Assembly (NCBI GenBank): GCA_964344965.1 | Contig: CAYFPJ010000002.1 | Span: forward strand, 1,068 to 65,067 | Length of the DNA: 64,000 nucleotides | From: an uncultured Gammaproteobacteria bacterium | Lineage (GTDB): Bacteria > Patescibacteriota > Patescibacteriia > Magasanikbacterales > UBA922 | Reading direction: 5' to 3' | Shown: in pieces, positions 8,075 to 45,442 of the stretch | Numbering within the stretch: position 1 is the stretch's first letter | Layout: each line of letters starts with the position of its first letter | Notes under the pieces: generated by a model | What the model was told of the DNA's origin: nothing | Database searches by the model: none | Seen by the model: only the letters and a program-made list of their open reading frames with translations | Program-made: the position numbers and the translations under genes

Positions 8075-8186
8075 AAACTAGGGAATAGAACACGGATGAC
8101 ACGGATCTAATGGATTGACACGGATAAAATCTATTAAAATCCGTTTGATCCGTGTGCCGAAGGCCTGTGTGCTATTCCCTAGTTTT
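8075..8186. repeat. 112-nt long hairpin with perfect 15-bp terminal inverted repeats and internal ACACGGAT direct and inverted repeats
   Basis: AAAACTAGGGAATAG...CTATTCCCTAGTTTT. The interior holds three ACACGGAT units followed by two complementary ATCCGT units. Lies between two minus-strand genes. Confidence 0.8.
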
Positions 8187-8208
8187 ATGATTCAAAGTAA
8201 TTACAAAA

Positions 8209-10164
8209 TCAATTATCAAACCTGACAATCTGATCCTGATCAATTTTCTTAGGCTTGTCCTCACTATCTGCTTTATTCTCTTTTTTAGATCCATTCCCAC
8301 CGCCAGAACCATCTTTGGCAGATCCACCGTTTTTCTTTTTCCTCTTTCTTTTCCTCTTTCGTTTCTTCTTAGGCTTGTCTTCCTTTAATTTTTCTTTCAC
8401 TTCTTCCTTACTTGAGTTTTTGTCTTCGTTATCTTTTATTTCTTCATCCTTTTCTTTTCTTGGCAAAGGTGAAAAGTCTTCTGAATCTTTTAGTTCTTTT
8501 TGCTCTTCATCAAAAAAATCAAGTAGATCCTGATCTTCTTCATCATTAGCTTTTTCTTCATCACTTCCAACCTCATCTTCTTGACCATCTTCTTCATCAA
8601 AAACTTCTGGCAAAGCCTCTCCATCTTTATCTTCGGGAAAATCAAACTTATCATCTGTCGCCAAGTCGTCTTCTTTAGCTTTTTCATTTTTAGGTAACAG
8701 ATCTTCAAGAGAGATATCTTCTTTATCAGATTCTAATTTCTTCTTATCAATCTCTATTTTTTCTTTGTCATCATCTTTTTTATTATCAGTATTTTTTTCT
8801 TTCTTTTTTTCTTTTTCTACTTCTCCACTATCACTACCAGCGATCTCCATCCCACTCCACCTAGTGATCTTCTCTTCGATGATATCACGCGATTTACCAT
8901 ATCTTTCCCGAGATACTCGGATCACTTTGTTAGCGCTCCCAGTAGACGAGCCAAGTGGTGGCATGCCAACCGCGCTGAACGGCTGGGAAGCAACTCCATT
9001 GATCATCAGTTTTAGAAAGATTTGATATTTTGGCAGATTAACAATATGCTCTTCGGTAAAAGTCGGAGCATATTCTTTTGCTAGAGCCTCCGCATCAGCT
9101 GCTCCCACTCGAAAAGTAAGAATACTTCCCACATTGCCAAATACAGCATCAGCTACAGTCTCATCTAGCTGAGCCACGTATTGGTGAGCCATGATCAGAC
9201 CAAGGCGATACTTACGAGCTTCAGACAAAATATTGGCAAAAGACTGAGTAGCAAAATTCTGAAATTCATCTACATAAAGAAAAAAATCATTACGCTCTTC
9301 CTCAGGAATATCTACTCTACTCATAGCGGCCAGTTGGATCTCGGTAATAAGCATTCCCCCGAGAAGACGACTATTGTCCTCCCCAATTCTACCTTTGGAA
9401 AGATTCATGATGAGGATCTTCTTCTGATCCATGATCTCTCGTATATTAATCGTTGATTTCACTTGAGCCACCATATTCCTGATCACACTGGCAGAAAGAA
9501 ACTGACCAATCTTGTTCTGAATTGGAGCGACCGCTTCTTTTTGGTACCTGGGTTCGTAGTTGGCAAATTCTGTAGTCCAAAATGATTTGACGACAGGGTC
9601 TTTCAATTGACGAATAACTTTTCGTCGATATTTCTTATCAGCAAGCATTCTGTTGATCCCAAGTAGTGTAGAGCCTTGAGAATCAAGTAGAGCAAGGAGT
9701 GTATTATTGAGAATGTATTCCATCCTCGCACTCCAGACATCTGGCCAAATCTTCTTGAAGACTCCCATCAGTCCAGAAGCAACAAGATGCTTTTGTTCTT
9801 CAGATTCTACTTCTAGAATATTGAAGCCAATTGGGAACTCTACATCAGCTGGATTGAAGTAAATAACATCATTGGTACGATGAGAAGGAATATAGTCGAT
9901 CAGCTTCTCAGCCATGTCTCCATGAGGATCTACCACTCCGACACCATGACCATTATATATGTCTTGGAGAACCATGTTCTCGAGCATAGTCGTCTTACCC
10001 ATCCCAGTCTTCCCTATCACATACATGTGTCTTCTGCGATCATCTGTCTTGATGCCAAACTTGCGCATCTGATTACGATAATTAGTCTGCGCAAAAAAAC
10101 AGACATGTTGTTTGTCTTCTGTAGATTTTTCTTGTCCCTTTATTTGGAGGTGGTGAGTGGGCAT
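8209..10164 (-). CDS. TraD/VirD4-like P-loop ATPase (T4SS coupling-protein-type AAA-binding domain) with ~230-aa K/E/D-rich low-complexity C-terminal tail
   Basis: Walker A YVIGKTGMGKTT and Walker B FFLYVDEFQNF; overall resembles the TrwB/TraD ATP-binding domain. The tail is poly-charged (KKKRKRKRKRKKK and D/E runs). No other T4SS genes are nearby. Confidence 0.5.
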   Translation of the reverse strand: MPTHHLQIKGQEKSTEDKQHVCFFAQTNYRNQMRKFGIKTDDRRRHMYVIGKTGMGKTTMLENMVLQDIYNGHGVGVVDPHGDMAEKLIDYIPSHRTNDVIYFNPADVEFPIGFNILEVESEEQKHLVASGLMGVFKKIWPDVWSARMEYILNNTLLALLDSQGSTLLGINRMLADKKYRRKVIRQLKDPVVKSFWTTEFANYEPRYQKEAVAPIQNKIGQFLSASVIRNMVAQVKSTINIREIMDQKKILIMNLSKGRIGEDNSRLLGGMLITEIQLAAMSRVDIPEEERNDFFLYVDEFQNFATQSFANILSEARKYRLGLIMAHQYVAQLDETVADAVFGNVGSILTFRVGAADAEALAKEYAPTFTEEHIVNLPKYQIFLKLMINGVASQPFSAVGMPPLGSSTGSANKVIRVSRERYGKSRDIIEEKITRWSGMEIAGSDSGEVEKEKKKEKNTDNKKDDDKEKIEIDKKKLESDKEDISLEDLLPKNEKAKEDDLATDDKFDFPEDKDGEALPEVFDEEDGQEDEVGSDEEKANDEEDQDLLDFFDEEQKELKDSEDFSPLPRKEKDEEIKDNEDKNSSKEEVKEKLKEDKPKKKRKRKRKRKKKNGGSAKDGSGGGNGSKKENKADSEDKPKKIDQDQIVRFDN

Positions 10165-10249
10165 GAATTTTGGTAGTTCAGCTAATATTTCAAAGTATAA
10201 TTATTATAGCACATAACATATAACCTGTAACATATAACTTTCCATTGTG

Positions 10250-10933
10250 TTATGGTTCAAATACTTCCTGTACTGGATATTTGCAAAATCCCTCATGGAT
10301 TCCGTCATTGCCAAATCTTTCCAACCAAGTAGGATTGCTGGAATATTTATACATAAAACTATTTTGCAACGAAGCAACTAACCTGTGTTTGAAAGGATTT
10401 TTCAAAATGTAATTGAAATGTTTCCAGAAGTCAGTAATGTTACGGATGCAGTAATCGTGATATTGGTACCATATTTTTCTGCCTGGTGTTTGGTCTAGTT
10501 TGTTTAACTCACGAGATGAGTCTTTGTGTAGCTTACGAACGAACTCAGTTAGAACATGTTTTTCTTGCTTTGGGACGAAATTCGCTGCGCTCATTTCATC
10601 ATTCCATTCTTTATAGGAAATATTCTCTCGTCTGATAGGAATGACAGATTGAGCCACAGCGAAATCTGTCCCAGTAGGCATATACTTTTTATTAATAGAT
10701 TGCGGCAGTGAAAAAAGTATATGGTAATGATTATCTAATAACACCCATGCATACATTCTGATACTAAACCTTTCAATCGATTGACGAAAAACATTTTGCC
10801 ACAATATCTTTTTATATTCTTTTTCAAAATACTTTTTCCCCTCCCAACACCGCGCCGTCAAAAAATAAGTATGTCCTCCATAAATATGATGCGGTCTATG
10901 TAAATTCCGATTTTGTGTTTGTGACAAGACCAT
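10250..10933 (-). CDS. IS200/IS605-type HUH tyrosine transposase, REP-associated (RAYT-like)
   Basis: HUH motif LLDNHYHILF and a C-terminal YILKNPFKHRLV...YKYSS block (cf. NPVKAGLV...W.YSS of RAYTs). No TnpB partner. Confidence 0.65.
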   Translation of the reverse strand: MVLSQTQNRNLHRPHHIYGGHTYFLTARCWEGKKYFEKEYKKILWQNVFRQSIERFSIRMYAWVLLDNHYHILFSLPQSINKKYMPTGTDFAVAQSVIPIRRENISYKEWNDEMSAANFVPKQEKHVLTEFVRKLHKDSSRELNKLDQTPGRKIWYQYHDYCIRNITDFWKHFNYILKNPFKHRLVASLQNSFMYKYSSNPTWLERFGNDGIHEGFCKYPVQEVFEP

Positions 10934-10954
10934 ACAAAAAATACAAAATTCGGA

Positions 10955-10985
10955 ATGACAAACGAAGCGCAGCGGAGTTTGTCAT
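10955..10985. repeat. perfect hairpin immediately upstream of the RAYT start
   Basis: ATGACAAAC-GAAGCGCAGCGGAG-GTTTGTCAT, a 9-bp stem. It overlaps the stop codon of the methyltransferase gene. Confidence 0.7.
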
Positions 10986-11671
10986 CCACGGATTACACTC
11001 ACAATATTATGCCCCTTCCTCAAATCCCTCCTCTTACCTTTCTTAGAAAAATACTGATCGACTATTTCAAACCCTGAACGAGTGAACAAATCTTCTAACT
11101 CTTCAATTTTAAATCCATAATAATACCTTTCGCCCAGCACTCCCCCGACAGGAGTGATCCAAGGAATGAGGAAATTGGCTCCGTGCTTTTTGAATTTTCC
11201 TTTGTTTACCACTTTGTTGACACTATCAGAAAAAAGATTCCAATTGGTCATCATGATGTGCCCCCCGGGTTTCAAAACTCGTTTCATTTCAGATAATGCT
11301 TTCAGTCTAGATTTTTCATCTGGCAAATGATGCAGTGTAGCGATACAAAAAATAAGATCAAACGTATTATCCTCCAATGGAAGATCCGTCATCTCTGCCA
11401 CTACAAATTTATTATTAGGAAAATCTTTCTTGCCCATCTCTATCTGTCCTTCACTTTGATCGACTCCCACATATTCCATGTCTTGAAATTTATCCAAAAG
11501 ATGGTATAATCGCCCTGCTCCACAACCAATATCAAGAACGCTATCACCATCTTTGATATATTTTTGAAAAGGGAGCATATCGTCCCAAACTTTTTGTCTA
11601 GTAGAAGCAAAAAGTGGCGCGATCTTATCGTAGATATCTTTGTTTTGTTTGATAATTTTTTTTGAATCCAT
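10982..11671 (-). CDS. class-I SAM-dependent methyltransferase, Trm9/ALKBH8-like (Methyltransf_11)
   Basis: SAM motif I VLDIGCGAGR, an acidic motif II and an LKPGG motif. Divergently paired with elp3. Confidence 0.6.
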   Translation of the reverse strand: MDSKKIIKQNKDIYDKIAPLFASTRQKVWDDMLPFQKYIKDGDSVLDIGCGAGRLYHLLDKFQDMEYVGVDQSEGQIEMGKKDFPNNKFVVAEMTDLPLEDNTFDLIFCIATLHHLPDEKSRLKALSEMKRVLKPGGHIMMTNWNLFSDSVNKVVNKGKFKKHGANFLIPWITPVGGVLGERYYYGFKIEELEDLFTRSGFEIVDQYFSKKGKRRDLRKGHNIVSVIRG

Positions 11672-11682
11672 AATTTCTGAAT

Positions 11683-11752
11683 GTAACTCAGGCCTTTAGG
11701 CCTGATAGAACCAATTTTGTTTGATGTAGTCAGGCCTAAAGGCCTGAGTTAC
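11683..11752. promoter_or_regulatory. perfect 23-bp inverted repeat (each arm itself a hairpin) in the divergent MTase/elp3 intergenic region, ending 2 nt before the elp3 ATG
   Basis: GTAACTCAGGCCTTTAGGCCTGA -24 nt- TCAGGCCTAAAGGCCTGAGTTAC. Confidence 0.6.
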
Positions 11753-11754
11753 AT

Positions 11755-17972: not shown

Positions 17973-19408
17973 TTAATAAAAATAATTTCTATCTTCTAAC
18001 TCTTCCGGCAAATAATCCTGCTCCACCTCTCCCCCAAAATCTGGATTATACTTATAATCTTTACCATATCCAATTTCCTTCATAAAGTCAGTCGGAGCAT
18101 TCCGGAGATGTAAAGGTACACCAAGATGTGAAGTATTCTTAGCATCTCTGGCCGCCCGACCATAAGCTTTGTAAAGTAAGTTTGATTTGGTCGACTTAGC
18201 ACAGTATACCACAGCCTGAGCAAGGTGGACGGTGCACTCAGGCATGCCGATCTTGTGCACTGCATCATACGCTGCGTTAGCTTGAATCATTGCTTCACTA
18301 TTGGCCATGCCGATATCTTCACAAGCGAAGCGAAGCACTCGTCTAGCCACATATAGCGGATCTGCTCCCCCTTCAAGCATCCGAGCAAGCCAATACAGCG
18401 AAGCATCTGCATCACTTCCCCGCATAGATTTATGCAAAGCTGAGATCAGATTGTAAAACTCCTCACCTTTTTTATCAAAAACTAAGTGAGTACGCTGTAA
18501 TGCTTCTTTTATATCGTCAACTGACAAGATAACGCCACCAGATTCACCCCCCCCCTATGAGGGGGAGTCGATCCCGAATAAAAGTAAATTTGGTTTAAGT
18601 AAGACTTCATCGGGCCATCCCCGCAGCAAGCTGCGGGGTATTGGCAGAAAATCTTATTTCAACCAATGTTAGTTTTCACTTTTTCGATGCAAGCATCGAG
18701 GAATAGAACCGCTTTAGATTCAATCGGGACGGAGGGGGTCTCACTGGAAGTCTTCCCAACTACGGCAAGTTCAATACCATTCAAAGCTACTCTCCCATCT
18801 TCCCCACTCAAACTTGCCAAAAATTCGATAGTCTCATTATCAATCTCGACATTATATTTCCCCAATCCTCTATCCTCATCCTCGAGAGCTTGTCTTATAA
18901 GCAGGACAATATCCTCATCACTAAGACTTTTCAAAATAAAAACTCGTGAACGTGAGAGAAGTGGACGGATGATTTCAAAAGAAGGATTTTCCGTAGTGGC
19001 TCCGATGAGTGTAACCACTCCTCTCTCAACATAAGGCAGTAATGCATCTTGCTGGGCCTTATTCCAACGATGAATCTCATCAATAAAAAGCACTGTCTTC
19101 TTATTTTCATTCTGTAACAATTCTGAAGCTTCCTTGACTGCTTTCATCAAATCTCGCTTACCGCTCTCTACTCCTGACAAAGAGACAAACTCTGAATTAG
19201 TTTGCTCAGCTATAATATTGGCGAGACTAGTCTTTCCTACCCCAGGCGGACCCCAAAAAATGATCGAAGATAATTGATCTTGCTCGACCATGCGTCTGAG
19301 TAATTTGCCTTTCCCAACAATTTCTTCTTGACCTACAAATTCATCAAAATTGCGAGGACGCATGCGGTCTGGGAGTGGTCTATTATTCTGTGGCTTTTTT
19401 TCTTTCAT
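17973..19408 (-). pseudogene. rarA: rarA/mgsA (recombination factor AAA+ ATPase) split into two ORFs (18659..19408 and 17973..18527) by an inserted copy of the 149-nt repeat
   Basis: The N-terminal ORF has the Walker A GPPGVGKTSLA and ends with repeat-encoded LDACIEKVKTNIG*. The C-terminal ORF starts at a TTG with ...FDKKGEEFYNLISALHKSMRGS..., which continues the RarA alignment with no residues missing. Confidence 0.7.
18577..18724 (+). repeat. 149-nt structured repeat, copy B (inside rarA)
   Basis: Identical over ~130 nt to the other copies, with a diverged 3' end. It is preceded by an extra C9-TATGA-G6 hairpin. Confidence 0.9.
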
Positions 19409-19418: not shown

Positions 19419-20090
19419 TTATCCTTCAGATTTATCTCTCAAATATCCTTCTATAATGGTGTCAGCTTTGGAGAGATTTATTGCTACCAAAACACGAGGA
19501 GGAGTATTGGATTCTAAATAAATCTGCTCTTCCAATGGAATTTTGTGTCCTTCACCTCCCATCAATCTCTCTTGAGCTTCCTTCAAAATTCTAGACATCG
19601 TTATATAAGTTATACCAGCGTATCTAGAACGGATATATTTAGGGCGAACAAAATTTTTATTATTAATCAAAAGACCAAGAATCGTCATCCGTGCAAGCGC
19701 ATCTTCTGCTAAATCTGGACTAAGATATACCTCTCTCCTCAATCTTTCTTTTGTATTGAACTTTTGTGTAAAATGTCTTGAACCATAATTCCGCTGATCT
19801 CCCTCGGGCTTACTTTTGTTACTTTCTTTCATTCTTGATACATTCTCTGCAATTTTCCTTTTATCTAGACCTGTTTTTCTCTGTATGGTTGTCAGAGACA
19901 AGCCATATCTTCCGTCTTCTGGGGGGTATAATCTTCCATCCTCACCTTCCACAGCTCCCAAAAAAATCAAAAATTGTTTTCGATCTTCTTGAATACGACT
20001 CTCAATCATTTCCAAAACCTTAGGACTATATTTGGCATCATATCTTCTATGAGGAAAATAAAAGTAAATTTGGTTTAAGTAAGACTTCAT
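19419..20090 (-). CDS. hypothetical protein with a possible HTH; the annotated start (MKSYLNQIYFY) is encoded by the repeat, and the true start is probably near 20009
   Basis: The first 11 codons lie inside repeat copy C. The segment LSLTTIQRKTGLDKRKIAENVSRM is HTH-like. Confidence 0.35.
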   Translation of the reverse strand: MKSYLNQIYFYFPHRRYDAKYSPKVLEMIESRIQEDRKQFLIFLGAVEGEDGRLYPPEDGRYGLSLTTIQRKTGLDKRKIAENVSRMKESNKSKPEGDQRNYGSRHFTQKFNTKERLRREVYLSPDLAEDALARMTILGLLINNKNFVRPKYIRSRYAGITYITMSRILKEAQERLMGGEGHKIPLEEQIYLESNTPPRVLVAINLSKADTIIEGYLRDKSEG

Positions 20091-20206
20091 CGGGCCATCC
20101 CCGCAGCAAGCTGCGGGGTATTGGCAGAAAATCTTATTTCAACCAATGTTAGTTTTCACTTTTTCGATGCAAGCATCGAGGAATAAAACCGCTTAAAGAT
20201 TTAAAA
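20057..20206 (+). repeat. 149-nt structured repeat, copy C (150 nt)
   Basis: Matches the other copies. It supplies the last 19 codons (TFKSLSGFIPRCLHRKSEN*) of the upstream ORF. Confidence 0.9.
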
Positions 20207-23761: not shown

Positions 23762-23893
23762 CTCTCTCGCAACCCACCACCTGTCCTCCTCCCTTAAAAA
23801 GGGAGGAGGGACGTACTAATAAGTTTGACCTATGCAGCACGTTCTCCCTCCCTTTCTAAGGGAGGGAGACAGAGGGTGGGTTGCGTGGTGAGA
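23762..23893. other. GC-rich multi-stem structured element in the convergent glyA/murG spacer
   Basis: Outer 10-bp stem GCAACCCACC/GGTGGGTTGC encloses two hairpins, CCTCCTCCC-TTAAAAA-GGGAGGAGG and CTCCCTCCC-TTTCTAA-GGGAGGGAG. Confidence 0.6.
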
Positions 23894-25480: not shown

Positions 25481-25518
25481 ATGTACGAAATTACGAACGT
25501 TACGAAATTTGCGAAACG
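25481..25518 (-). repeat. TTTCGTA-type 8-9-bp tandem repeat array (4 units), oriented toward the 25034..25441 gene
   Basis: The minus strand reads TTTCGCAAA TTTCGTAACG TTCGTAA TTTCGTACAT. Confidence 0.7.
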
Positions 25519-25526
25519 TTACTACT

Positions 25527-25600
25527 GCGATAGGATTACCGCCGAAAGGCGGTCTCTACGAACGTTGTCTGTGCCGGCCTGCCTTTCGGCAGGAATCCTA
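25527..25600. repeat. GC-rich nested hairpins between the two TTTCG arrays
   Basis: CCGCC-GAAA-GGCGG and CCTGCC-TTTC-GGCAGG enclosed by TAGGATT/AATCCTA. Confidence 0.6.
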
Positions 25601-25612
25601 ATATTTGAACCA

Positions 25613-25649
25613 CTTTCGCACCCTTCGTACTATTCGTAATTCCGTACAT
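25613..25649 (+). repeat. TTTCGTA-type tandem repeat array (4 units), plus orientation
   Basis: CTTTCGCACC CTTCGTACTA TTCGTAATT CCGTACAT. Confidence 0.65.
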
Positions 25650-25678: not shown

Positions 25679-28651
25679 CTACACCCTAAACTCACAAATA
25701 TCCCTAAAATCACATCTTCCACAAATAAATTTACTTGGCGTAGCTTCAAACTTTCGTTCGTGAATTTGCTCAATAGTTTTGGCCAATTTTCCTTTTAGCT
25801 TTTCCAGTTCTTTTTCTTTCCCGATGAATGATGTCTTTATATTATCATTTAAATAATAAAATGTTAACTTACTGGTCTCACCCACATGCTTATATTCTGG
25901 CAAAGTGCTAGCCACTATCTGATAAATCAAAAGTTGATCCTTCTCTTTACCAACTAATTTCTCTTTACTTTTTCCAGTCTTGTAATCAACAATTTCAAGA
26001 GTGCCGTCTTCCAGTTTGTCGACCCGATCAATACGGCCGGAAATTGTATAGTCCCCTACTTTTACCTTGAAACCACTTTCAAGAGAGATAGGTACATTCC
26101 AATTCCCTTCTTCAGAAGCATAAAAAACTTTTAGAATTTCTTTTCCTTTCTTATGATAATCTTCTCGCTGGCGTTTGCTCACATACCAGTCACTGATCCA
26201 CTTCTCCTCATATATTTGTAGAAGTTCTTCAAAAGACGGCACTTTGATATTGGAATCTATAAACTTATCAGCCGGTAGACCAAAAAGTGAATCCTGCTTC
26301 AAGCCATTTAATTCCTGAATCCGCTCATAAAATTTTTGCAAAGTATTGTGCATGGTCGAGCCAAAACTAAAGCTAGCACTCCCCTTGGTCGGAATTTTGA
26401 GGACATGCGCCAGCTTATACTGATACGGACAAGTCTGATAAGAACTAATCTGCGAATAAGAAAACCTCTTCGGCAAATCATAGATCACCTCACTTTCCTT
26501 TGTATCTTGAATATCCCTCTGTTGAAAAGATATGGTAACGGGTTCGTCGTTCGTCAGGAGCTTGTCCTGAGCTTGCCGAATGGATCGTTCGTCTCTCATT
26601 CCCAACTCCGCCACGAATCTACTTAATTTGGAAGAGCGTACCCCACCATAACTCTCAGCGCTCGTCAAAAAAAGTCTCTCCTTCGCCCTCGTCATCGCTA
26701 CATAAAACAGCCGTCTCTCTTCTTGATAATGATAGTCCCCTTCTGGCACAGTTTCACGAACAAGTTCTTCTGGCAGCTCAATATTGCCACCTTTGCGACG
26801 AGTAGGAAATCGCCCTTCCACACAGTTGACGACGAAAACATACTTGAATTCCAGACCCTTGGAGGCATGTACTGTCATAATGTTCACAGAGTCTGGTGTA
26901 TCGGTCGGCTGGTAGAGCTTGCCATCATCACCAGAAATGATAATTTGGTTATAAAAATCAACAAATCCAAAAACATTGGCATCCGGAATAGATTCTTGAT
27001 ATTTTTCTACAAATTCAAAAAACTGCTTGAGATGTCTGATCTCTCTTATCGTTTTTCTATCCCCATCTTCTTCTGTCTGCGTGAGGTGAGATAGATATCC
27101 ACTGTTTTCGAGAAACTCAATTAGTACTGTGGTTGGTTTCTCAAATCTGGCTCGCTTCATGCCATGGTGGATTAGTTCGATCAATTTATTACAAATTCCA
27201 ACCCCCTCCTCTGATAGCTTGAATTCTCGAGCCCGCTTCAGACCTTCGTAATATGGAATGCTTTTCTTTTTTGATAAGTACAAAATCTTCTGCATATCAT
27301 TTTCGCGCATTCCAAAAAATGGTAAACGAAGAAGGCGGTAGACTGCCACAGAATCATGAAAGTCAGCCAGCACTTTAAAAAAATTAAAGCAATCCATCAC
27401 AATCGGCTGGCGATACAATCCAGAAGAAGCCAAAAATTCGTATGGAATACCTGATTGTTCAAGGCCTTGGATAAACGGACTAGCATGACTATTGGCTCGG
27501 ACGAGGATAGCAACATCATCCCACACAAACTCTTTATCTTCTTTTTGCAATTTCAAAATTTCACTAACAACAGATCTGACTTCGCTTTCTAAATTAAGTT
27601 CATTAACATGCAAAACTGATGGTTGGGAACTATATTCTCCTGATTCTTTATTCCTAATTCCTGATTCTAGTCTCTTATCAATATCAAGCTTCACCTCAAG
27701 ACGATCCGGATTATTATTCTGAATAAGCTGGTAAGCAGAATCAAGGATCTTCTGATTGGAGCGATAATTTTCTGTTAGCACTATTTCTTTTCCTTTTGGA
27801 AAGTCATCTTTGAATCTAAGGATATTGGAAACACTGGCTCCACGAAAGGCATAAACAGACTGATCATCGTCCCCGACCACAGTGAGCTGACTATTGCCAG
27901 CCAGCAATTTTACCAGCTCATACTGAGCATAGTTGACGTCTTGAAATTCATCAACCAGAATATATTTAAATCTTTTTTGCAAACTTTCTAAAATTAATTT
28001 CCTTTTTTTGAGTAGTCCTACTGTATAAAAAATTAGATCGCCAAAGTCTAACGCATTATGCCTGAGCAGAAGCTGATTGTAGCTGTGATAAGCATTGGCG
28101 AGCTCTGCTATCTTGCTTTTCTCTTCTTCGGCATTGTCATGATCTAGTTGTAAATTTTTGGCATATTCCAGATATTCTGCCGGACTGATCAGCTCGTCTT
28201 TACATTTGGAAAAATGAGAGATAAGGGCATAGATATTACGACTGGGATTTCCAAGTGGGCGATAATAATCAAGGTTGAAATCATACAAATTTTCTTTCAT
28301 CAGAAGCCAGGCATCTGTCCCTGTCATTAGTTTGAACTGATTTGGTAAACCCACATCAAGACCATAATTCTCCAAAATATTTTGGCAAAAAACATGAAAA
28401 GTAGAAATCTGTAAATCTAGGTAACCAATATCAAGGAGCACATCAACCCGCTCCTGCATCTCTTCTGCTGCTTTGTCTGTAAAAGTAAGGGCGAGAATCT
28501 CTTCTGGTTTCACTCCTTTTTCCTTTACCAAATAACTAATCTTCTTGGTAATCACAGTCGTCTTCCCAGTCCCCGCTCCAGCAACAATAAGAAGAGGACC
28601 GCCGACATATTCGACGGCCTGTTTTTGTGATTTATTGAGTTTTTTTGTCAT
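25679..28651 (-). CDS. UvrD/PcrA-like superfamily-1 helicase fused to a C-terminal PD-(D/E)XK Cas4/AddB-like nuclease domain
   Basis: N-terminal helicase motifs (GAGTGKT, VDEFQD, TVHASKGLEF). The C-terminal region carries the nuclease motifs and a Cys cluster (CPYQYK...CGRCDFRDIC). Confidence 0.8.
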   Translation of the reverse strand: MTKKLNKSQKQAVEYVGGPLLIVAGAGTGKTTVITKKISYLVKEKGVKPEEILALTFTDKAAEEMQERVDVLLDIGYLDLQISTFHVFCQNILENYGLDVGLPNQFKLMTGTDAWLLMKENLYDFNLDYYRPLGNPSRNIYALISHFSKCKDELISPAEYLEYAKNLQLDHDNAEEEKSKIAELANAYHSYNQLLLRHNALDFGDLIFYTVGLLKKRKLILESLQKRFKYILVDEFQDVNYAQYELVKLLAGNSQLTVVGDDDQSVYAFRGASVSNILRFKDDFPKGKEIVLTENYRSNQKILDSAYQLIQNNNPDRLEVKLDIDKRLESGIRNKESGEYSSQPSVLHVNELNLESEVRSVVSEILKLQKEDKEFVWDDVAILVRANSHASPFIQGLEQSGIPYEFLASSGLYRQPIVMDCFNFFKVLADFHDSVAVYRLLRLPFFGMRENDMQKILYLSKKKSIPYYEGLKRAREFKLSEEGVGICNKLIELIHHGMKRARFEKPTTVLIEFLENSGYLSHLTQTEEDGDRKTIREIRHLKQFFEFVEKYQESIPDANVFGFVDFYNQIIISGDDGKLYQPTDTPDSVNIMTVHASKGLEFKYVFVVNCVEGRFPTRRKGGNIELPEELVRETVPEGDYHYQEERRLFYVAMTRAKERLFLTSAESYGGVRSSKLSRFVAELGMRDERSIRQAQDKLLTNDEPVTISFQQRDIQDTKESEVIYDLPKRFSYSQISSYQTCPYQYKLAHVLKIPTKGSASFSFGSTMHNTLQKFYERIQELNGLKQDSLFGLPADKFIDSNIKVPSFEELLQIYEEKWISDWYVSKRQREDYHKKGKEILKVFYASEEGNWNVPISLESGFKVKVGDYTISGRIDRVDKLEDGTLEIVDYKTGKSKEKLVGKEKDQLLIYQIVASTLPEYKHVGETSKLTFYYLNDNIKTSFIGKEKELEKLKGKLAKTIEQIHERKFEATPSKFICGRCDFRDICEFRV

Positions 28652-28656
28652 AAGTT

Positions 28657-28696
28657 ATGTGCGAAATTACGAAAGCTGCGAAATGTACGAAAAAAA
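28657..28696 (-). repeat. TTTCGTA-type tandem repeat array (4 units) ending 5 nt before the helicase-nuclease ATG
   Basis: The minus strand reads TTTCGTACA TTTCGCAGC TTTCGTAA TTTCGCACAT AACTT ATG. Confidence 0.7.
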
Positions 28697-28760
28697 CTTA
28701 ATCTATTCTATATAATCCTAGCACAATTATGTTGCCTTAACAATTCCAACAACAAACAAA

Positions 28761-28796
28761 TTTCGTAACTTTCGTACTGTTCGTAATTTCGCACAT
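28761..28796 (+). repeat. TTTCGTA-type tandem repeat array (4 units), upstream of the hup promoter
   Basis: TTTCGTAAC TTTCGTACTG TTCGTAA TTTCGCACAT. Confidence 0.7.
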
Positions 28797-28828
28797 AAAT
28801 CATCCTGTGGACAAATATTTTGGCTCTA

Positions 28829-29268: not shown

Positions 29269-29332
29269 GTTCCATATTTGTCATCCTGAGCGCAGCGAAG
29301 GATCTTTAGCAAGGAAGACATTCTCTAAGCCA

Positions 29333-29358
29333 AAAACCGCCTAATCAGGCGGTTTTAT
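29333..29358 (-). terminator. rho-independent terminator downstream of tRNA-Met
   Basis: The minus strand reads AAAACCGCCTGATTAGGCGGTTTTT. Confidence 0.75.
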
Positions 29359-29434: not shown

Positions 29435-29549
29435 CGGGCTCCATTTTCGCTTCGCTCAAATTATGCCCGGCAGGCCCGGGGCTTTCTGGGCAAAAAAATA
29501 ATAATTGGCCTGCCCGGCGCAATCACGACAGAGTCGGGATGGAGACGGG

Positions 29550-29709: not shown

Positions 29710-29790
29710 TAATTACGTTCTGTATCACTATTTTAGATACGTTATTGACAAAATCAATAGTATATAAGATTGGAATTAAAAAAATGTTTT

Positions 29791-29818
29791 AGTGCTTAGG
29801 TGTTTAAGTGTTCAAGTG
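29791..29818. repeat. AGTGYTTAR octamer tandem repeats directly after the ftsI stop codon
   Basis: AGTGCTTAGG TGTTTAAG TGTTCAAG TG; as RNA this reads CACUUGAACACUUAAACACCUAAGCACU and is G-poor. Confidence 0.7.
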
Positions 29819-29823
29819 AAAAA

Positions 29824-31599
29824 CTAGCGGACCGGCGGCACTTGATAATATTCCAAAATAGATTTAGCAATATCTCCAAACACTGGGGCCGCTGTGCTAG
29901 AAGAATATTTTCTCTTTGGTTTTTCAAACTTAACTATCATCACAAACTTAGGATCATCTACCGGAGCAAATCCAATGAAAGAATGATTGGTATCTTCTGT
30001 ATATCCTCCCCGGCCAGCAATCTGAGCTGTCCCAGTCTTTCCCGCTACATAATGACCATTCACACCAGCCAAGCCAGCCTGACCACTATCCACAACTTTC
30101 ACAAGCATGGCTCCCAAAAGAGAGGCGCTTTTTTTGTCCAAAATTTCCCCAGTAGACTCTGGATGAGTCTGGTCTATCCTACCATCTGCGTATTCTATTC
30201 TCTCTACCACATAGGGTTTCATCATCTCCCCTCCATTGGCAATTGCTCCGAATGCAGTAACTGCCTGAAGAGGTGTAGCTGTAAGTCCCTGACCAAAAGA
30301 AGCAGTCGCCGTGTAGCAATCAAAACGATCTTTGCTATTTTCATAAAGAGAATCTATTGTACCAGAAGATTCACTATCAAGCTCAATACCTGTCTTCACC
30401 CCAAAACCAAATTTTTCAATATATTCAATAAATTTTTCTTTACCAACCTCTTCAGCCACATGGACCATTCCCGTATTAATAGAATTTTCCAACACACCTG
30501 TCATGGTCTGATCTTTGTATATTTTTTCTCCAGCATTTTTGATTGGCTTTTGACATACGCCATCTCTACTACCAGAATCATAAAAATATGTATCTGGAGT
30601 GATAACCTCAACATCTAGAGCGGCAGCCATAGCAATTGGTTTGAAAATTGAACCAGGCTCATATGGCGTGAAAATACTAGAATTATTATAAAAATTTACG
30701 TCATCAATGTTCCCATAATTATTGAGTTCAAAGTCTGGCAAAGAACACATCGTTCGAATTGCACCAGTACTAGGGTCTAAAATAATAAGAGATGCTCCGC
30801 TTGCACCATATTCTTCCATACCTTGACGCAAACGCTCACAAGCCTTGAATTGGAGTGTCCTATCAATAGTAAGGAAGATATCTGCCCCATCTTCAGCTGG
30901 CTCGAACGACCGACCAGCTAGTGGGATGAAGCTCCCTGCCAACCCTTTCTTTCCTTCAAGAAACCCTCCCTTACCGCTGAGCTCCTGCTGCCAATACCCT
31001 TCTATACCATAACGTCCAATATCATTACCGTCTTCATCTTTACCCACAAAACCTATCACATGAGACCCGAGATGTCCTTCTGGATAGTAGCGTTCTTGTC
31101 GACGAACAAATCCGATTCCTTCCAAATCTTTTTCTTTCAAAATATCAACCACACTTTCTTCCACTTTTTTCTCTATCGGTTCGTAGGGGTCTGTACGCTT
31201 ATTTAGTTGTAAATAAAGTTGGAATTTTTGCTCGTCATCATAGCCAAACACTTCAGACAGTACTTCTGAAATACTCTCGGCAGTTTCATCATCCTCAATA
31301 TCACGAGTATCTGCAAATACTGTAAAAAAATCCTTATTGAGAGCAGCAGGATAAGCTTCTCCAGTATCATCATCTTCTAGAAAAAAAATCTCCCCTCTCT
31401 CGGGAAAGAGCTGCTCATAGAGTGTATGAGAGCCAGCAGCAAGAGCTGTATAAAATCCATGCTGGATGACCATTAAGACAAAAAGGCGAGCTATCACAGC
31501 AAAGGTAAAGATGCTCAAAAAAACAACCGCGATTCTAAGACGTTTGTCTGTGGGATTAGAGAGATCTTCTTTGTATTTTCTTTTTTTATTTTTATACAC
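29824..31599 (-). CDS. ftsI: peptidoglycan D,D-transpeptidase (PBP2/FtsI-type class B penicillin-binding protein)
   Basis: N-terminal TM segment, PBP dimerisation domain, and transpeptidase motifs SIFKP (SxxK), SIN-like and KTGTA. Confidence 0.85.
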   Translation of the reverse strand: MYKNKKRKYKEDLSNPTDKRLRIAVVFLSIFTFAVIARLFVLMVIQHGFYTALAAGSHTLYEQLFPERGEIFFLEDDDTGEAYPAALNKDFFTVFADTRDIEDDETAESISEVLSEVFGYDDEQKFQLYLQLNKRTDPYEPIEKKVEESVVDILKEKDLEGIGFVRRQERYYPEGHLGSHVIGFVGKDEDGNDIGRYGIEGYWQQELSGKGGFLEGKKGLAGSFIPLAGRSFEPAEDGADIFLTIDRTLQFKACERLRQGMEEYGASGASLIILDPSTGAIRTMCSLPDFELNNYGNIDDVNFYNNSSIFTPYEPGSIFKPIAMAAALDVEVITPDTYFYDSGSRDGVCQKPIKNAGEKIYKDQTMTGVLENSINTGMVHVAEEVGKEKFIEYIEKFGFGVKTGIELDSESSGTIDSLYENSKDRFDCYTATASFGQGLTATPLQAVTAFGAIANGGEMMKPYVVERIEYADGRIDQTHPESTGEILDKKSASLLGAMLVKVVDSGQAGLAGVNGHYVAGKTGTAQIAGRGGYTEDTNHSFIGFAPVDDPKFVMIVKFEKPKRKYSSSTAAPVFGDIAKSILEYYQVPPVR

Positions 31600-31640
31600 A
31601 AAAACAAATTCCTATTATCTAGAAAATGGACGAATGCAAA

Positions 31641-31714
31641 TTCTTTTTTGCTTTTTTGGTGGAGCCAACAGTCTGCTCCTCTGCGATTTTGGGCCATCAA
31701 AAAAGCAAAAAGAA
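31641..31714. other. conserved-loop / variable-stem hairpin, copy 1
   Basis: Stem TTCTTTTTTGCTTTTTTG / CAAAAAAGCAAAAAGAA encloses GGAGCCAACAGTCTGCTCCTCTGCGATTTTGGGCC. Confidence 0.7.
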
Positions 31715-31746
31715 TTTGGTAGTTCATTTTACAATTTTTAAGCAAA

Positions 31747-32859: not shown

Positions 32860-33076
32860 AACTACTAGCTAACCTATCATTTTAGAATCCACATGGGGGT
32901 TTGGGGGAGAAGCTGTTTGAGCCCTGTTGCTAAGTGTAGATGATATTAATAGCACCTCACGGGCGAGTTCTTCTCCCCCAACACTTTTTGTTACTTTTTG
33001 GTGTCAAAAAGTAAGTGGAGAATATATTAACGTCGGGAGTTTGAGAGGTGGGTCGGAGGGAAAGACTTCATGATAA

Positions 33077-33107
33077 AAAAATCCATCATGTAGATGGATT
33101 TTTTTAA
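33077..33107 (-). terminator. bidirectional rho-independent terminator after the YtxH-like gene
   Basis: AAAAAAATCCATC-ATGTA-GATGGATTTTTTT. Confidence 0.75.
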
Positions 33108-33113
33108 TATTAA

Positions 33114-33440
33114 CTATTTCTTCCTACCACCAATTTCTCTCTGTATACTTTTCCACTGCGAGCTGACCAGCTTCACTACCATATTTTTAACATTATCAGC
33201 CAAACCATTTTGAATAGCATATTTGTCCACAGTCTCTCTGACCAAAGTAACATATTTATTCTTGGTCATCTTACCAAATTGATCAGAGGTGGCAACCCTC
33301 TCTTTGACATCAGCATATACATCGGCCGCATAGTCAAAAATTTGGTCACGCACTTCCCTGCCCTTCTTAGTAGTAGAGAGCCACATAAGTCCTGCTCCCA
33401 AGAGACCACCAAATACTAAGCCTTTTTTAAATTTACCCAT
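33114..33440 (-). CDS. YtxH-like small membrane-anchored protein
   Basis: N-terminal GLVFGGLLGAGLMWL TM segment followed by KKGREVRDQI, as in the YtxH family. Confidence 0.45.
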   Translation of the reverse strand: MGKFKKGLVFGGLLGAGLMWLSTTKKGREVRDQIFDYAADVYADVKERVATSDQFGKMTKNKYVTLVRETVDKYAIQNGLADNVKNMVVKLVSSQWKSIQREIGGRKK

Positions 33441-33463: not shown

Positions 33464-33576
33464 CTCTTCGTCATTGCGAGGAGTCTGAAAGAACGACGTG
33501 GCAATCTTAGTGTTTGTAAATAAAACAATGAGATTGCCACGTCGTGCTTGCTTCGCGCACTCCTCGCAATGACGAG
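33464..33576. repeat. 113-nt long two-segment hairpin between co-directional genes
   Basis: CGTCATTGCGAGGAGT/ACTCCTCGCAATGACG and ACGACGTGGCAATCT/AGATTGCCACGTCGT, both perfect arms; GC-rich relative to the flanks. Confidence 0.75.
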
Positions 33577-35835: not shown

Positions 35836-35903
35836 ATTTCAAAATACACCAATTAAGCCAGAGCAGTTAACTACCATATGAGAGGTAAATAATTCCAATT
35901 CAA

Positions 35904-35957
35904 AAGTGTTTAAGTGTTTAAGTGTTTAAGTGCTAAAGTGCTAAAGTGCTAAAGTGC
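35904..35957. repeat. AGTGYTTAA/AGTGCTAAA octamer tandem repeats (3+3 units) directly after the epimerase stop codon
   Basis: (AGTGTTTA)x3 (AGTGCTAA)x3 AGTGCC; as RNA this is (CACUUUAG)x3 (CACUUAAA)x3 and is G-poor. Confidence 0.8.
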
Positions 35958-35962
35958 CAAAA

Positions 35963-36973
35963 TCACGTCATCATCTCCTTATTGGCAATAGTATAGTTGA
36001 TGGTCCTCTTCAGACCATCATCAATCCTAATCAATGGAATCCATCCTAACCCTTCTTTAGCGCGAGTCAGATCTGGCATTCCTTTGGCAGTAAGAAACTC
36101 TAATGGGTCTTCAAATACCACTCTAGAATTGGAACCTGTCATAGCAATAATCTTTTCAGCAATAGCAGACATCTTATGGATTTCATCATGACCCAAATTT
36201 ACTAAGTATATCTCAGGACCAGCATGCATCAGGCGAACCAATCCGTCAACAGTATCTGAGACAAAACAAAGTGACTGGACAAGCGTATCATCACCATAGA
36301 TCACCAGGTCCCGCCCGTCAAGTGCATCTAGGATAAAATCTGGTATCAAGAGACCATCACGAAGCTTCATACGCGGTCCGTAAGTAGTGAAAACTCTGGC
36401 AATTTTAGCATCAAGACCATAAACTTGTCTATAGGTCTCGACACAAGTCTCAGCAAACCTTTTTCCCTCATCATAAGAGCCTCTTGGAGAGAGGTGATTG
36501 ACCTGACCTTCGTCAGACTCAGTAAAAAACCTTTTTTCTGGAGAGGAGGGACCATAGACTACAGAGCTGGAAGTGAAAACATACTTGGAGCGATACTTTA
36601 CAGCCAGATCTAGAGTGTTGAGCATTGCCCTAGAGTTGGCATGCAAGGAGTGTAGTTTTAAATCTTCAAAATTCTTAGGGCTGGTAGGACAAGCCAAATG
36701 ATAAATTTCTTGTATACCTTGAAATTTCAATTTGAATTTTTCTAACTCTGGAAAATCTTTTAGATCAATAGGAAAATTTACGTCATACTTTATAAATTCA
36801 AAGTCAGGATATTGCAACAGATGTTCAACATTTTGGATAGTAGAATTGGACAGATCATCCATACAAATCACATTGGCTTCTCTCAAAAGACGCTCACATA
36901 GATGAGACCCTAAGAAGCCAGCCCCACCAGTCACTAAGACATTTTTCTTTTCAAAAATAGGTGTTTGATCCAT
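35963..36973 (-). CDS. NAD-dependent epimerase/dehydratase (UDP-glucuronate decarboxylase / UXS-like)
   Basis: VLVTGGAGFLGSHL Rossmann motif and a YxxxK-containing SDR core; overall UXS-like. The match is to the family only. Confidence 0.65.
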   Translation of the reverse strand: MDQTPIFEKKNVLVTGGAGFLGSHLCERLLREANVICMDDLSNSTIQNVEHLLQYPDFEFIKYDVNFPIDLKDFPELEKFKLKFQGIQEIYHLACPTSPKNFEDLKLHSLHANSRAMLNTLDLAVKYRSKYVFTSSSVVYGPSSPEKRFFTESDEGQVNHLSPRGSYDEGKRFAETCVETYRQVYGLDAKIARVFTTYGPRMKLRDGLLIPDFILDALDGRDLVIYGDDTLVQSLCFVSDTVDGLVRLMHAGPEIYLVNLGHDEIHKMSAIAEKIIAMTGSNSRVVFEDPLEFLTAKGMPDLTRAKEGLGWIPLIRIDDGLKRTINYTIANKEMMT

Positions 36974-39005: not shown

Positions 39006-39014
39006 ATCTATTTA

Positions 39015-41967: not shown

Positions 41968-41991
41968 CGATAGTTACAAATTACTAGTTAA

Positions 41992-42140
41992 AATAAAAGT
42001 AAATTTGGTTTAAGTAAGACTTCATCGGGCCATCCCCGCAGCAAGCTGCGGGGTATTGGCAGAAAATCTTATTTCAACCAATGTTAGTTTTCACTTTTTC
42101 GATGCAAGCATCGAGGAATAAAACCGCTTAAAGATTAAAA
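41992..42140 (+). repeat. 149-nt structured repeat, copy D
   Basis: Full-length match to the other copies; lies between convergent genes. Confidence 0.9.
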
Positions 42141-42178
42141 ATAAAATGCCCAAATTTAAATTGGGAATTTTATTTTTA
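42141..42178. terminator. bidirectional terminator hairpin
   Basis: CCCAAATTTAAATTGGG flanked by A/T runs, between convergent genes. Confidence 0.6.
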
Positions 42179-42230
42179 ATTTGAAACTAGCTTTCAATCG
42201 TGGTCTCAAGTCAAAAGGAAATTCTGAAAT

Positions 42231-44458: not shown

Positions 44459-44464
44459 AGAAAA

Positions 44465-45298
44465 TCAAAAAATCATCAATATAACCCCAATGACAAGTAA
44501 TAATAAAAAAATAATTTTTGTGAGTATGGTTCTTTCTTTAAAGTAGACATAACCTGACAAAAGTGACCATGATATACTAAAAGATCTCTTGGCAGCAATA
44601 ATTACTGAAGCTGGGGCAAACAAAAAAGCAAAACTAGCAAATACAGTAGAAAGACCACTACTTAAAGACTGGAAAAAAAAGATTGGTTTTTTCAAGAATA
44701 CAAACGGATTTTCCTTCTTTCTAACCATAGCCATAATAAAAAAGTAAATTAATAGAACAAAAATTGTAATAGACTGTTCAGCTTCCACAGAATTGAAGTA
44801 GGTTATATTATACTTAAACAAGGAGAGAGTTGCAACAGCATTGACGGCAGTAAAAAGTACTAGCCATCTCCCTTTTTTCTTCATCTTATTGTTTAGAAAT
44901 ATCAAAATAACAACAATAAATATCAAACTAATGCCAATAAACTGAAAAGTACTAATACTATACCCCAAAACAACATCTACAAAAAGTAGTAGTGGAATGG
45001 TCAGAGTCCTGATAAAGCTGAAAGTGGTCCTGTCTGCTGTCACTATGGCCCAAATAGTCACATGGGCCTGGAGGACCTCTAGGAATAACTTGGGTACAAA
45101 AGTGGGTAGAGAAGAGACAGAAAATAAAAATTCTCCTCTAAAAAAAGAAATCAACAGAAAGAAAAGAAAGGAGAAAAAAAAGATCAAAAAACCCATAGTG
45201 TAGAGGCTCTCCTCTTTAGCCTCTACTTTCTTTTTTCCCAAACTATCAGAAAACTCCTGAAAAAAAGTGCCTACAAATGTAAGGAATATTCCAAACAT
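44465..45298 (-). CDS. polytopic integral membrane protein of unknown function
   Basis: ~9 predicted TM segments; no family motif. Confidence 0.4.
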   Translation of the reverse strand: MFGIFLTFVGTFFQEFSDSLGKKKVEAKEESLYTMGFLIFFFSFLFFLLISFFRGEFLFSVSSLPTFVPKLFLEVLQAHVTIWAIVTADRTTFSFIRTLTIPLLLFVDVVLGYSISTFQFIGISLIFIVVILIFLNNKMKKKGRWLVLFTAVNAVATLSLFKYNITYFNSVEAEQSITIFVLLIYFFIMAMVRKKENPFVFLKKPIFFFQSLSSGLSTVFASFAFLFAPASVIIAAKRSFSISWSLLSGYVYFKERTILTKIIFLLLLVIGVILMIF

Positions 45299-45305
45299 AA
45301 ATATC

Positions 45306-45442
45306 TAACGAGTAGTGTGAATTAATTTTCACAATTGGCTGAATTGAACTATTTTTGAAGCGAGGACTGTTTGAGCGAAGCGAGTTTCGCAGCGAAAAAA
45401 TAGCTCAATTCAGACAAAAAAATTAATTCACACTACTCGTTA
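45306..45442. repeat. 137-nt element with perfect 24-bp terminal inverted repeats (MITE-like long hairpin)
   Basis: TAACGAGTAGTGTGAATTAATTTT...AAAATTAATTCACACTACTCGTTA. A nested second inverted repeat and GCGAAG/GCGAAA repeats lie inside. Confidence 0.8.

Follow-up and report, generated by a model that had tools for sequence, protein, structure and literature searches.

Long intergenic palindromes in a Parcubacteria genome: a CGTC-tagged REP dimer and candidate REP-like elements at gene 3' ends

Results

Three long hairpins between codirectional genes

We analyzed 64,000 nt of DNA (assembly GCA_964344965.1, contig CAYFPJ010000002.1, positions 1,068 to 65,067; here called the window) from an uncultured Patescibacteria bacterium of the lineage UBA922, whose genome we take to be small, at about 1 Mb. 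Both its gene content and the naming of the homologs assign the organism to the Parcubacteria/Patescibacteria. Nearly all genes in the window lie on the minus strand. A preliminary description had reported three unrelated long hairpins, each between two codirectional genes, and had offered miniature inverted-repeat transposable elements (MITEs), cis-regulatory RNAs, and small RNA (sRNA) genes as candidates. The arms of all three hairpins (H1, H2, and H3, to which no strand is assigned) were located, and each hairpin was indeed found between two minus-strand genes. H1 (8074-8186) is separated by 22 nt from the stop codon of the TrwB-like ATPase gene that precedes it and by 74 nt from the next gene, and H2 (33467-33576) lies 51 nt past the stop of a glycosyltransferase family 4 (GT4) gene and 26 nt ahead of the start of ytxH. 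H3 (45300-45448) occupies the entire gap between the stop codon (45444) of a UDP-glucose dehydrogenase (UGDH) gene and the start (45298) of a drug/metabolite transporter (DMT)/EamA-type permease gene, beginning 2 nt past the former and ending 1 to 7 nt ahead of the latter. The DMT start is secure, since the 120 best homologs are, with few exceptions, 276 to 280 amino acids (aa) long and align over 91 to 100% of the query. In two other assemblies of the same population (L125 and L126), the UGDH-DMT gap, judged by its length, is likewise 145 nt. Three independent Logan assemblies (L001, L002, and L004) end within H2, 29 to 56 nt upstream of ytxH, and an ENA (MEGAHIT) contig crosses H2 with an identical sequence; the H2 palindrome thus breaks unitig assemblies. 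The sole promoter-like match, a weak one with an extended -10 element, lies shortly upstream of H2 on the minus strand (33641-33613).

An inverted-repeat scan combined with folding revealed that H1 is a nested palindrome of 113 nt. Its arms (8074-8093 and 8167-8186) are 95% complementary and include a perfect outer stem of 15 bp (8074-8088 and 8172-8186), the four outermost pairs of which are A4/T4. Further in, the arms consist of 9-nt ACACGGATN repeats (at 8090, 8099, and 8118) and inverted ATCCGT(GT) copies (at 8139 and 8148); ACACGGAT is found at the same three direct positions and inverted at 8148. An asymmetric side hairpin, GCCGAAGGC, occupies 8156-8164, and a U-rich tail, UUUUUGUGUUUUAU, follows H1 on the sense (minus) strand. 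A reading of ACACGGAT as a DnaA box was rejected, as comparison by eye with TTATCCACA left only TATCC in common.

The outer arms of H2 (33468-33484 and 33559-33575) form a perfect 17-bp stem, and its inner arms (33489-33515 and 33523-33549; 27 nt) are 89% complementary. Tag and outer stem read CGTCATTGCGAG (33469-33480) and CTCGCAATGACG (33563-33574), and the conserved inner stem is formed by GTGGCAATCT (33498-33507) and AGATTGCCAC (33531-33540). Asymmetric modules lie between the two stems (GCTTCGC at 33550-33556), the apex is private, and a U-rich tract follows H2 on the sense strand. H3 is a three-layer palindrome of 149 nt with no U-tract. Its 30-nt arms (45300-45329 and 45419-45448) are 93% complementary and include a perfect 24-bp outer stem (45306-45329 and 45419-45442); a second, nested stem is formed by a 22-nt pair (45335-45356 and 45396-45417), and the apex contains GAGCGAAGCGA (45373-45383) and CGCAGCGAA (45388-45396).

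All three hairpins are far more stable than expected from their composition. Their minimum free energies were -48 to -68 kcal/mol, compared with -21 to -27 kcal/mol for dinucleotide shuffles (z scores of -8.6 to -13.6 on both strands), and none of 200 shuffles was as stable. Their stems comprise 40 to 60 pairs with internal branches. The window also contains ordinary short terminators with A/T tracts (33060-33120, 42134-42180, 48416-48470, and, after a tRNA-Met gene, about 29332-29356), and the stems of the clear terminators of this genome have 7 to 13 pairs. Because such ordinary terminators are present as well, the long hairpins represent something extra; a consensus scan for simple terminators flagged none of H1, H2, and H3, in agreement with the original view that they are too long and too perfect for this class. 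No alignable similarity among the three was detected by a self-BLAST of the window. The claim that they are unrelated therefore stands at the level of alignment but not at that of small modules, as GAA-loop mini-hairpins are common to all three (GCCGAAGGC in H1; GCGAAGC/GCTTCGC in H2 and H3).

H2 belongs to a multi-phylum family of CGTC-tagged repeats

To place H2, one genome per GTDB species was scanned with the palindromic pattern GTCATTGCGAG...CTCGCAATGAC. The motif was present at at least 120 loci in these species-representative genomes, in the general frame (C/T)GTCATTGCGAG...CTCGCAATGAC(G/A). Among the matches listed, the hosts included Bradyrhizobium, sphingomonads, Micavibrio, Mucilaginibacter, Pedobacter, Flavobacterium, Chloroflexota, Planctomycetota, Ignavibacteriota, Microcoleus, and several Patescibacteria, and the phyla represented included Proteobacteria, Bacteroidota, Chloroflexota, Planctomycetota, Cyanobacteria, and Patescibacteria. 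The 130 family elements among these matches are 70 to 112 nt long and modular. Within an invariant outer stem lies a variable module (most commonly CGAAGCGAA, CGCAGCGAA, GAGCGAAGCGAC, or a CCGAAGG-type mini-hairpin), followed by a conserved inner stem, GAAGCAATCC(AG) or GTGGCAATCT, and a private apex. The base flanking the motif covaries between the two arms, being C..G in 28 and T..A in 12 of 55 elements, and the tags are therefore CGTC and TGTC.

A covariance model (R1) built from these 55 elements, in which 96.4% of the cells over 24 pairs are paired, scored H2 at 57.8 bits (E = 2.7e-13). This was the sole significant hit in the window, the next-best having an E value of 0.15. The model also found six related elements in 632 kb of loci from other Parcubacteria (about 1 per 100 kb). 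A canonical member had at least 40 matching places in one Novosphingobium replicon, and in each of the 13 matching records, the best place was without an annotated feature. Among the matches listed, 53 elements were located between unidirectional genes, 21 between convergent genes, and 5 between divergent genes, with a median distance of 33 nt past the upstream stop codon; their orientation showed no bias relative to transcription (14 versus 22; p = 0.24).

Repeats of this kind have been described as CGTC-tagged repetitive extragenic palindromic (REP) sequences (Di Nocera, De Gregorio & Rocco 2013, PMC3733652). According to that account, they carry a CGTC or TGTC tag (with TGTC and CCTC as variants), a stem that starts with AT, and CCA tails; the unit has a stem of 8 to 9 bp and a loop of 4 to 5 nt. 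The same account places them near 3' ends, mostly as inverted dimers that can be folded into one large stem-loop and that are sometimes nested in longer palindromes, with no dedicated transposase. It lists hosts in five phyla, with a predominance of Alphaproteobacteria (including Bradyrhizobium, sphingomonads, and Micavibrio), and includes Neisseria dRS3 and Rickettsia RPE-4/6 among the family.

H2 was matched to these repeats by the published description rather than by the consensus figure, and on that basis the two agree in several respects. H2 reads tCGTCATTGCGAG...CTCGCAATGACGa (33469-33574) and thus carries the terminal CGTC tag; both of its arms, like all family members, have the CGTC-ATTGC...GCAAT form with its A-T stem start, and the inner end is of the GCAATCC(A) type, followed by variable spacers and apex. 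As described for CGTC REPs, its inverted units form one long hairpin, located between unidirectional genes and near a stop codon. No associated transposase is known for the H2 family either, and the hosts overlap (Bradyrhizobium, sphingomonads, Micavibrio). Related Parcubacteria loci (L199, L200, and L208) contain the classic 8-bp units of the form ATTCCCGC-GGAG-GCGGGAAT, nested, again as described, in longer palindromes. H2 seems to depart from the description in other respects. The half unit ATTGCGAG...GCAAT has no 8- to 9-bp stem of its own and pairs mainly with its inverted partner; pairing within a single H2-type arm is limited to the 5 bp of ATTGC/GCAAT, which enclose a GA-rich or GCGAAGC module. 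H2 also has longer private modules, a CTC/CTT tail in place of CCA, and a copy number of one in the 64 kb of its genome that was covered. The inner tail is GCAATCCAG in most family members and GCAATCTT/GCAATCTC in H2, a minority variant that covaries with its partner.

Rfam searches of the window and 18 family loci at the gathering threshold returned only tRNAs, and at an E-value threshold only generic miRNA-precursor hairpins scored on H2. A literature search for strings such as GTCATTGCGAG and GCGAAGCAATCC returned only primers. Taken together, these data show that H2 is a member of a multi-phylum family of CGTC-tagged REP dimers, and for this hairpin the earlier MITE proposal is borne out in the form of a widespread, multicopy, REPIN-like family.

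Two putative decayed CGTC-REP fragments were noted beside the tRNA-Met gene, TCCTTCGCTGCGCTCAGGATGACA (minus strand) and TTTGAGCGAAGCGA, at 29285-29310 and 29447-29460. The latter is a 14-nt exact match to the apex of H3. It seems that earlier copies of the family have decayed in this genome.

H1 and H3 share the design of H2 but not its tag

H1 and H3 show the layered architecture seen in the relatives of H2, with one or more private outer stems and modules inside. Neither contains a CGTC tag, and what the apex of H3 shares with the family is only the inner modules GAGCGAAGCGA and CGCAGCGAA. GAGCGAAGCGA, an exact 11-mer common to H3 and the H2 family, has an expected count of 0.03 in the window and was found there twice and 54 times in the family loci; it forms the core of the commonest long inner module, and CGCAGCGAA is the second-ranked inner module. 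No open reading frame (ORF) of at least 30 aa lies wholly within H1 or H3.

A MITE would be expected in multiple copies that share their terminal inverted repeats. No such copies of H1 or H3 were found in the sequences searched, which comprised about 64 kb of the source genome and unrelated data, so that here the MITE proposal gained no support. H3 is flanked as ...ATC-TA-ACGAG...CTCGT-TA-TCT and H1 as ...AAC-TA-GGG...CCC-TA-GTT; because TA is self-complementary, the TA at these ends, a candidate target-site duplication, is indistinguishable from an extension of the palindrome. Composite elements were found in related Parcubacteria (L154 2981-3112, L200 3894-4062, and L208 12440-12560), in which a common outer stem, (T/G)TAGGACTTACGC..., surrounds differing CGTC REP doublets, including the classic TGTCATTCCCGCGGAGGCGGGAATCCAG unit, which resembles Neisseria dRS3. 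The flanks of L154 and L200, the two that were compared, are nonhomologous. Contigs of related Parcubacteria also contain palindromes whose arms are tandem repeats containing ACGGAT or CGAAA.

We infer that H1 and H3 are elements of the H2 kind, either low copy or orphan, because all share a nested architecture and GAA-loop modules, H1 has tandem 9-mers, and H3 has CGTC-family modules in its apex. They could be either low-copy REPIN/MITE-like insertions or palindromes grown locally from terminators.

Equivalent junctions in relatives are hairpin free

A nonulosonic-acid and polysaccharide operon, syntenic with contig L129, occupies the right third of the window, and junctions were compared for the gene downstream of H3 and for the hairpins of this operon. 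Upstream of the DMT gene, L129 has a gap of 26 nt, as against the 145 nt that H3 fills here. Operon gaps in the window measure 136 to 168 nt, each with a hairpin, whereas the hairpin-free equivalents in relatives measure 23, -2, 64, 66, and 124 nt, the 124-nt spacer being unstructured. The junction orthologous to that of a hairpin at 56702-56774 is about 5 to 23 nt in L129, and a hairpin at 49629-49701 is absent from the equivalent junction of relatives. No orthologous junctions for H1 or H2 were present among the relatives fetched. Because the equivalent junctions of relatives have no hairpins, the hairpins are, by this sequence comparison, lineage-specific gains rather than conserved regulators.

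A wider population of palindromes in the window

All intergenic gaps of at least 40 nt were surveyed by inverted-repeat scanning and folding. Although H1 to H3 are all real, their number had been underestimated, as the 64 kb contain at least 10 further long intergenic palindromes and three short terminator-like hairpins; in all, about fifteen palindromic repeats were counted 3' of genes. Most gaps longer than about 120 nt contain either a long palindrome or a copy of a five-copy repeat described below, and nearly all palindromes of the window sit shortly 3' of stop codons. As with H1 to H3, no strand is assigned to any of them.

Five of these palindromes are of the same class as H1 to H3. The palindrome at 542-691 (150 nt) lies 5 nt past the stop of a DUF559 gene and has a small hairpin within each arm (TCTCTCTCC..GGAGAGAGA; CCTTCTCC..GGAGAAGG). 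That at 23768-23885 (118 nt) consists of two GGGAGG-type hairpin units between convergent serine hydroxymethyltransferase and MurG-like genes. At 25481-25649 (169 nt), the arms are four tandem 9-mers (TACGAAANN) with inner GAAA/TTTC-loop hairpins; the palindrome at 28650-28803 belongs to the same 9-mer family and abuts the start codon of a UvrD/PD-(D/E)XK helicase gene, and a half copy of it is present at 46838-46874. The palindrome at 11681-11754 has perfect 25-bp arms, each itself palindromic (TCAGGCCTTTAGGCCTGA) and centered on GGCCTTTAGGCC, and lies between divergent gene starts. It is 10 nt from the start of a methyltransferase gene and directly adjoins the earliest possible start of a radical S-adenosylmethionine gene; promoter space is missing here unless the gene starts are miscalled.

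Five medium-sized hairpins were also found. Two are private palindromes: 49629-49701, with arms of 21 to 28 bp, lies inside the operon between two sugar-epimerase genes, and 59565-59645, with 30-nt arms that are 97% complementary, lies between phosphoadenosine phosphosulfate (PAPS)-reductase and DUF2061 genes. The other three, designated m hairpins, have a conserved loop. That at 31637-31718 has an A/T-rich private outer stem and the loop CAACAGTCTGC-N9/10-GATTTTG; that at 52828-52905, also with a private stem, lies between GFO/IDH and NeuB genes, and that at 56702-56774 lies between epimerase and NeuB genes. Although the m hairpins share one loop (31666-31691, 52854-52879, and 56722-56765), their self-complementary outer stems of 20 to 26 bp are wholly different. 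This combination of conserved loop and private stems is the opposite of whole-element copying and hints that a small core was inserted into preexisting hairpins.

Other repeats and split genes

A nonpalindromic element is present in five direct copies (4193-4348, 18570-18725, 20050-20205, 41985-42140, and 47821-47976), all with the minus strand as sense. The copies are 100% identical over a core of about 145 nt, which reads TAAGCGGTTTTATTCCTCGATGCTTGCATCGAAAAAG...CCCCGCAGCTTGCTGCGGGG...ACTTTTATT, and the element has two subterminal hairpins with GCTTGC tips. The alignment revealed no terminal inverted repeats, there was no Rfam hit, and elsewhere only the 28-nt hairpin was found, in one IMG/VR contig (L215). 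The element looks like a recently active nonautonomous element, possibly IS200/IS605-like, or a multicopy small RNA gene. One copy is involved in splitting the rarA/mgsA AAA+ ATPase gene (17973-19408). The N part (18659-19408) covers positions 2 to 40 of the AAA_assoc_2 profile, and the C part (17973-18527) covers positions 48 to 81 of that profile and MgsA_C. Between the two parts is an out-of-frame insert of 131 nt that includes a copy of the five-copy element, which provides the stop codon for the N part, and a second, G/C-rich hairpin. Since the five-copy element split rarA/mgsA, small elements do move in this genome.

Tandem arrays with a unit of 8 nt, AGTGTTTA / AGTGCTAA, were observed at 29783-29823 (5 units) and 35897-35961 (about 8 units). 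They lie directly 3' of the minus-strand stops of a penicillin-binding protein gene (at 29824) and an epimerase gene (at 35963) and are a third kind of 3'-end repeat here. A pyruvate phosphate dikinase (PPDK)/phosphoenolpyruvate (PEP)-synthase-type gene also seems to be split, with PPDK_N at 1086-2102 and the PEP-utilizers domains in L212, past the left edge of the window; the DUF559 (Vsr-like endonuclease) gene and the 542-691 palindrome lie between the two parts (696-2102 and L212 2222-4914). In related Parcubacteria, tRNA-like sequences were seen inside perfect inverted repeats of 17 to 20 bp (L140 2641-2745, L150 2538-2646, L167 14671-14761, and L193 929-1020), which extend the acceptor stem outward to give a hairpin of about 100 nt in all.

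Discussion

On balance, we favor the interpretation that H1, H2, and H3 are REP/REPIN-like intergenic palindromic DNA repeats that have accumulated at the 3' ends of genes in this Parcubacteria genome. Each would consist of small hairpin-forming units arranged as inverted doublets, in some cases within a further outer palindrome, and such elements would arise or spread as DNA. The likely route would be single-strand hairpin-dependent insertion or templated palindrome formation, with a preference for sites at or in existing hairpins downstream of genes. The hairpins would then be cotranscribed with the upstream gene. In the RNA, a long hairpin could hold back 3'-to-5' exonucleases, cause partial termination, or be a site of RNase III-type processing, and it would uncouple the flanking cistrons. 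H3, which touches both the stop codon and the next start codon, should limit ribosome access to the downstream DMT gene.

A number of observations weigh against this interpretation, chiefly where H1 and H3 are concerned. The R1 scores of H1 (11.4 bits; E = 0.85) and H3 (8.0 bits; E = 7) are those of generic hairpins. The window self-BLAST found no second copy of H1, H2, or H3, and neither H1 nor H3 recurred in the 1.6 Mb of loci that were fetched (0.7 Mb from related Parcubacteria and 0.9 Mb from diverse sources) or in plasmids. The termini of H1 and H3 were absent from IMG/VR, the terminus of H3, the only one searched there, was absent from the JGI metagenomes, and a protein-word search with the only stop-free frame of H1 gave no candidate. 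Pfam analysis of the 62 ORFs of the window detected no transposase, REP-associated tyrosine transposase (RAYT), or integrase. As 11681-11754 lies between divergent starts, a 3'-end role is impossible there. Finally, the function at the RNA level is entirely our inference, and the mismatches in the stems (39 G.T versus 25 A.C) do not differ significantly and, if anything, favor the antisense strand.

It is possible, though we think it rather unlikely, that H1, H3, and the other private palindromes are immobile and represent intrinsic terminators that grew in place. Intrastrand template switching (quasi-palindrome correction) together with slippage of 9-mers would have extended them into long, near-perfect palindromes acting as oversized, partly bidirectional terminators. 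Templated correction yields near-perfect arms, and this account agrees with the uniqueness of the sequences, with the failure to find further copies of H1 and H3 in the sequences searched, and with a mismatch pattern that has no RNA-strand signature. All of the palindromes are sited where terminators sit, and the outer stem of H1 has the A-tract/stem/T-tract layout of the ordinary bidirectional terminators of this genome. However, several hairpins lie inside a conserved tight operon whose gaps in relatives are about 2 to 60 nt, where a terminator would be disruptive, and H3 leaves no space for a U-tract or reinitiation signals. In addition, H2 and the L154, L200, and L208 composites show that palindromes of the same design move between unrelated sites, the apex of H3 contains modules of the CGTC family, and one member (11681-11754) is located between divergent starts. 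A role as sRNA genes or cis-regulatory RNAs, such as 5' untranslated region switches for YtxH, the DMT permease, or an NAD(P)HX dehydratase, was among the original proposals and now appears very unlikely. The folds are very stable, the next start codon is only 26 nt (H2) or 1 to 7 nt (H3) beyond the end of the hairpin, and there is the weak promoter-like match near H2. Yet the Rfam scan that had been suggested returned no family, only generic long-hairpin noise of the miRNA-precursor type. Both strands fold equally well, as expected of a DNA palindrome and not of a shaped RNA, and the long, near-perfect duplex offers no ligand or protein pocket. Elements related to H2 occur behind unrelated genes across many phyla, oriented either way and without bias, and relatives with the same genes have no hairpin at the equivalent junctions.

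Hairpins of 110 to 150 nt that are imperfectly palindromic, mutually dissimilar, and located after codirectional genes also recall the attC sites of an integron cassette array, and stem-loop arrays of the TIGR type occur in Patescibacteria. A TIGR array consists of tandem units beside a gene for a Nop-domain Tas protein (PMC12045711), whereas the hairpins of the window are dispersed, at intervals of several kilobases, through a region of housekeeping and operon genes. Integrases, Nop-domain Tas proteins, and Cas proteins are absent from the products of the 62 ORFs, and the RYYYAAC/GTTRRRY cores of attC are unmatched (H3 has ATCTAAC and GTTATCT; H1 and H2 have neither). We give attC-like sites or TIGR/CRISPR-like guide units next to no credence and rejected these readings, as core sites, arrays, and partner genes are all missing. 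A more far-reaching version of the repeat interpretation, to which we attach a low probability, is that CGTC units, GAA-loop mini-hairpins, and private outer stems are successive layers left by a hairpin-targeting process acting on single-stranded DNA. By inserting palindromic doublets at the loops or bases of hairpins already present, such a process would generate nested palindromes combinatorially. The enzyme would be a candidate protein common to many bacterial phyla, including reduced genomes of the candidate phyla radiation (CPR), and H1 and H3 would be recent, still-private products.

Returning to the REP/REPIN-like interpretation, H1 to H3 can be set beside other known hairpin elements. 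REPINs consist of two inverted REPs and a spacer and form intergenic, nonautonomous hairpins of about 70 to 110 nt; they are GTAG tagged, exist in tens to hundreds of near-identical copies, and depend on a single-copy RAYT (Y1/HUH) gene that is itself flanked by REPs (Bertels & Rainey 2011, PMC3116915). H1 to H3 are similar in size and shape but differ in that the tag of H2 is CGTC and that H1 and H3 are single copy in all sequences searched; no PF01797-type or other transposase was found among the 62 ORFs. The hairpins also resemble the ERIC and Correia MITEs of Proteobacteria (100 to 170 bp), which are imperfect palindromes of 100 to 150 bp between cotranscribed genes. ERIC/IRU and Correia (CREE/NEMIS) elements form hairpins in mRNA that are cut by RNase III or that change the stability of the flanking cistron, and by analogy we propose that the same mode of action may operate here. 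Unlike H1 and H3, these MITEs are conserved in sequence and present in many copies per genome, with defined terminal inverted repeats and TA target duplications; H1 and H3 match nothing in the collections searched and are set apart from ERIC and Correia by descriptions rather than by consensus sequences. Features of intrinsic terminators are present as well, namely, the position directly after stop codons, the U-rich tracts at H1 and H2, and the A-tract/T-tract outer stem of H1. With 40 to 60 pairs, H1 to H3 nevertheless lie well outside the terminator format (a stem of 5 to 14 bp, a loop of 3 to 8 nt, and a U-tract), and they may still act in a terminator-like manner.

H2 adds a new, CPR-hosted member to a known repeat superfamily, and because one of the hairpins belongs to a known multi-phylum family, the finding is mostly ordinary. 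It extends the host range of CGTC REPs to Patescibacteria, which, compared with the 2013 description, are probably, but not certainly, a new host. This CPR genome tolerates about one long palindrome per 4 kb, even within a conserved sugar-biosynthesis operon. Such elements also pose a risk for annotation, as they break short-read assemblies and could be mistaken for regulatory RNAs; repeats of this type may, in addition, give rise to spurious small ORFs. We know of no mobilizing enzyme for the CGTC REP superfamily, and small-genome lineages may help to find the protein that recognizes the GTCATTGCGAG and GCAATCC motifs. Current understanding is unchanged unless the idea of nested insertion is true, in which case gene-poor CPR genomes would be well suited to phylogenetic profiling for the enzyme.

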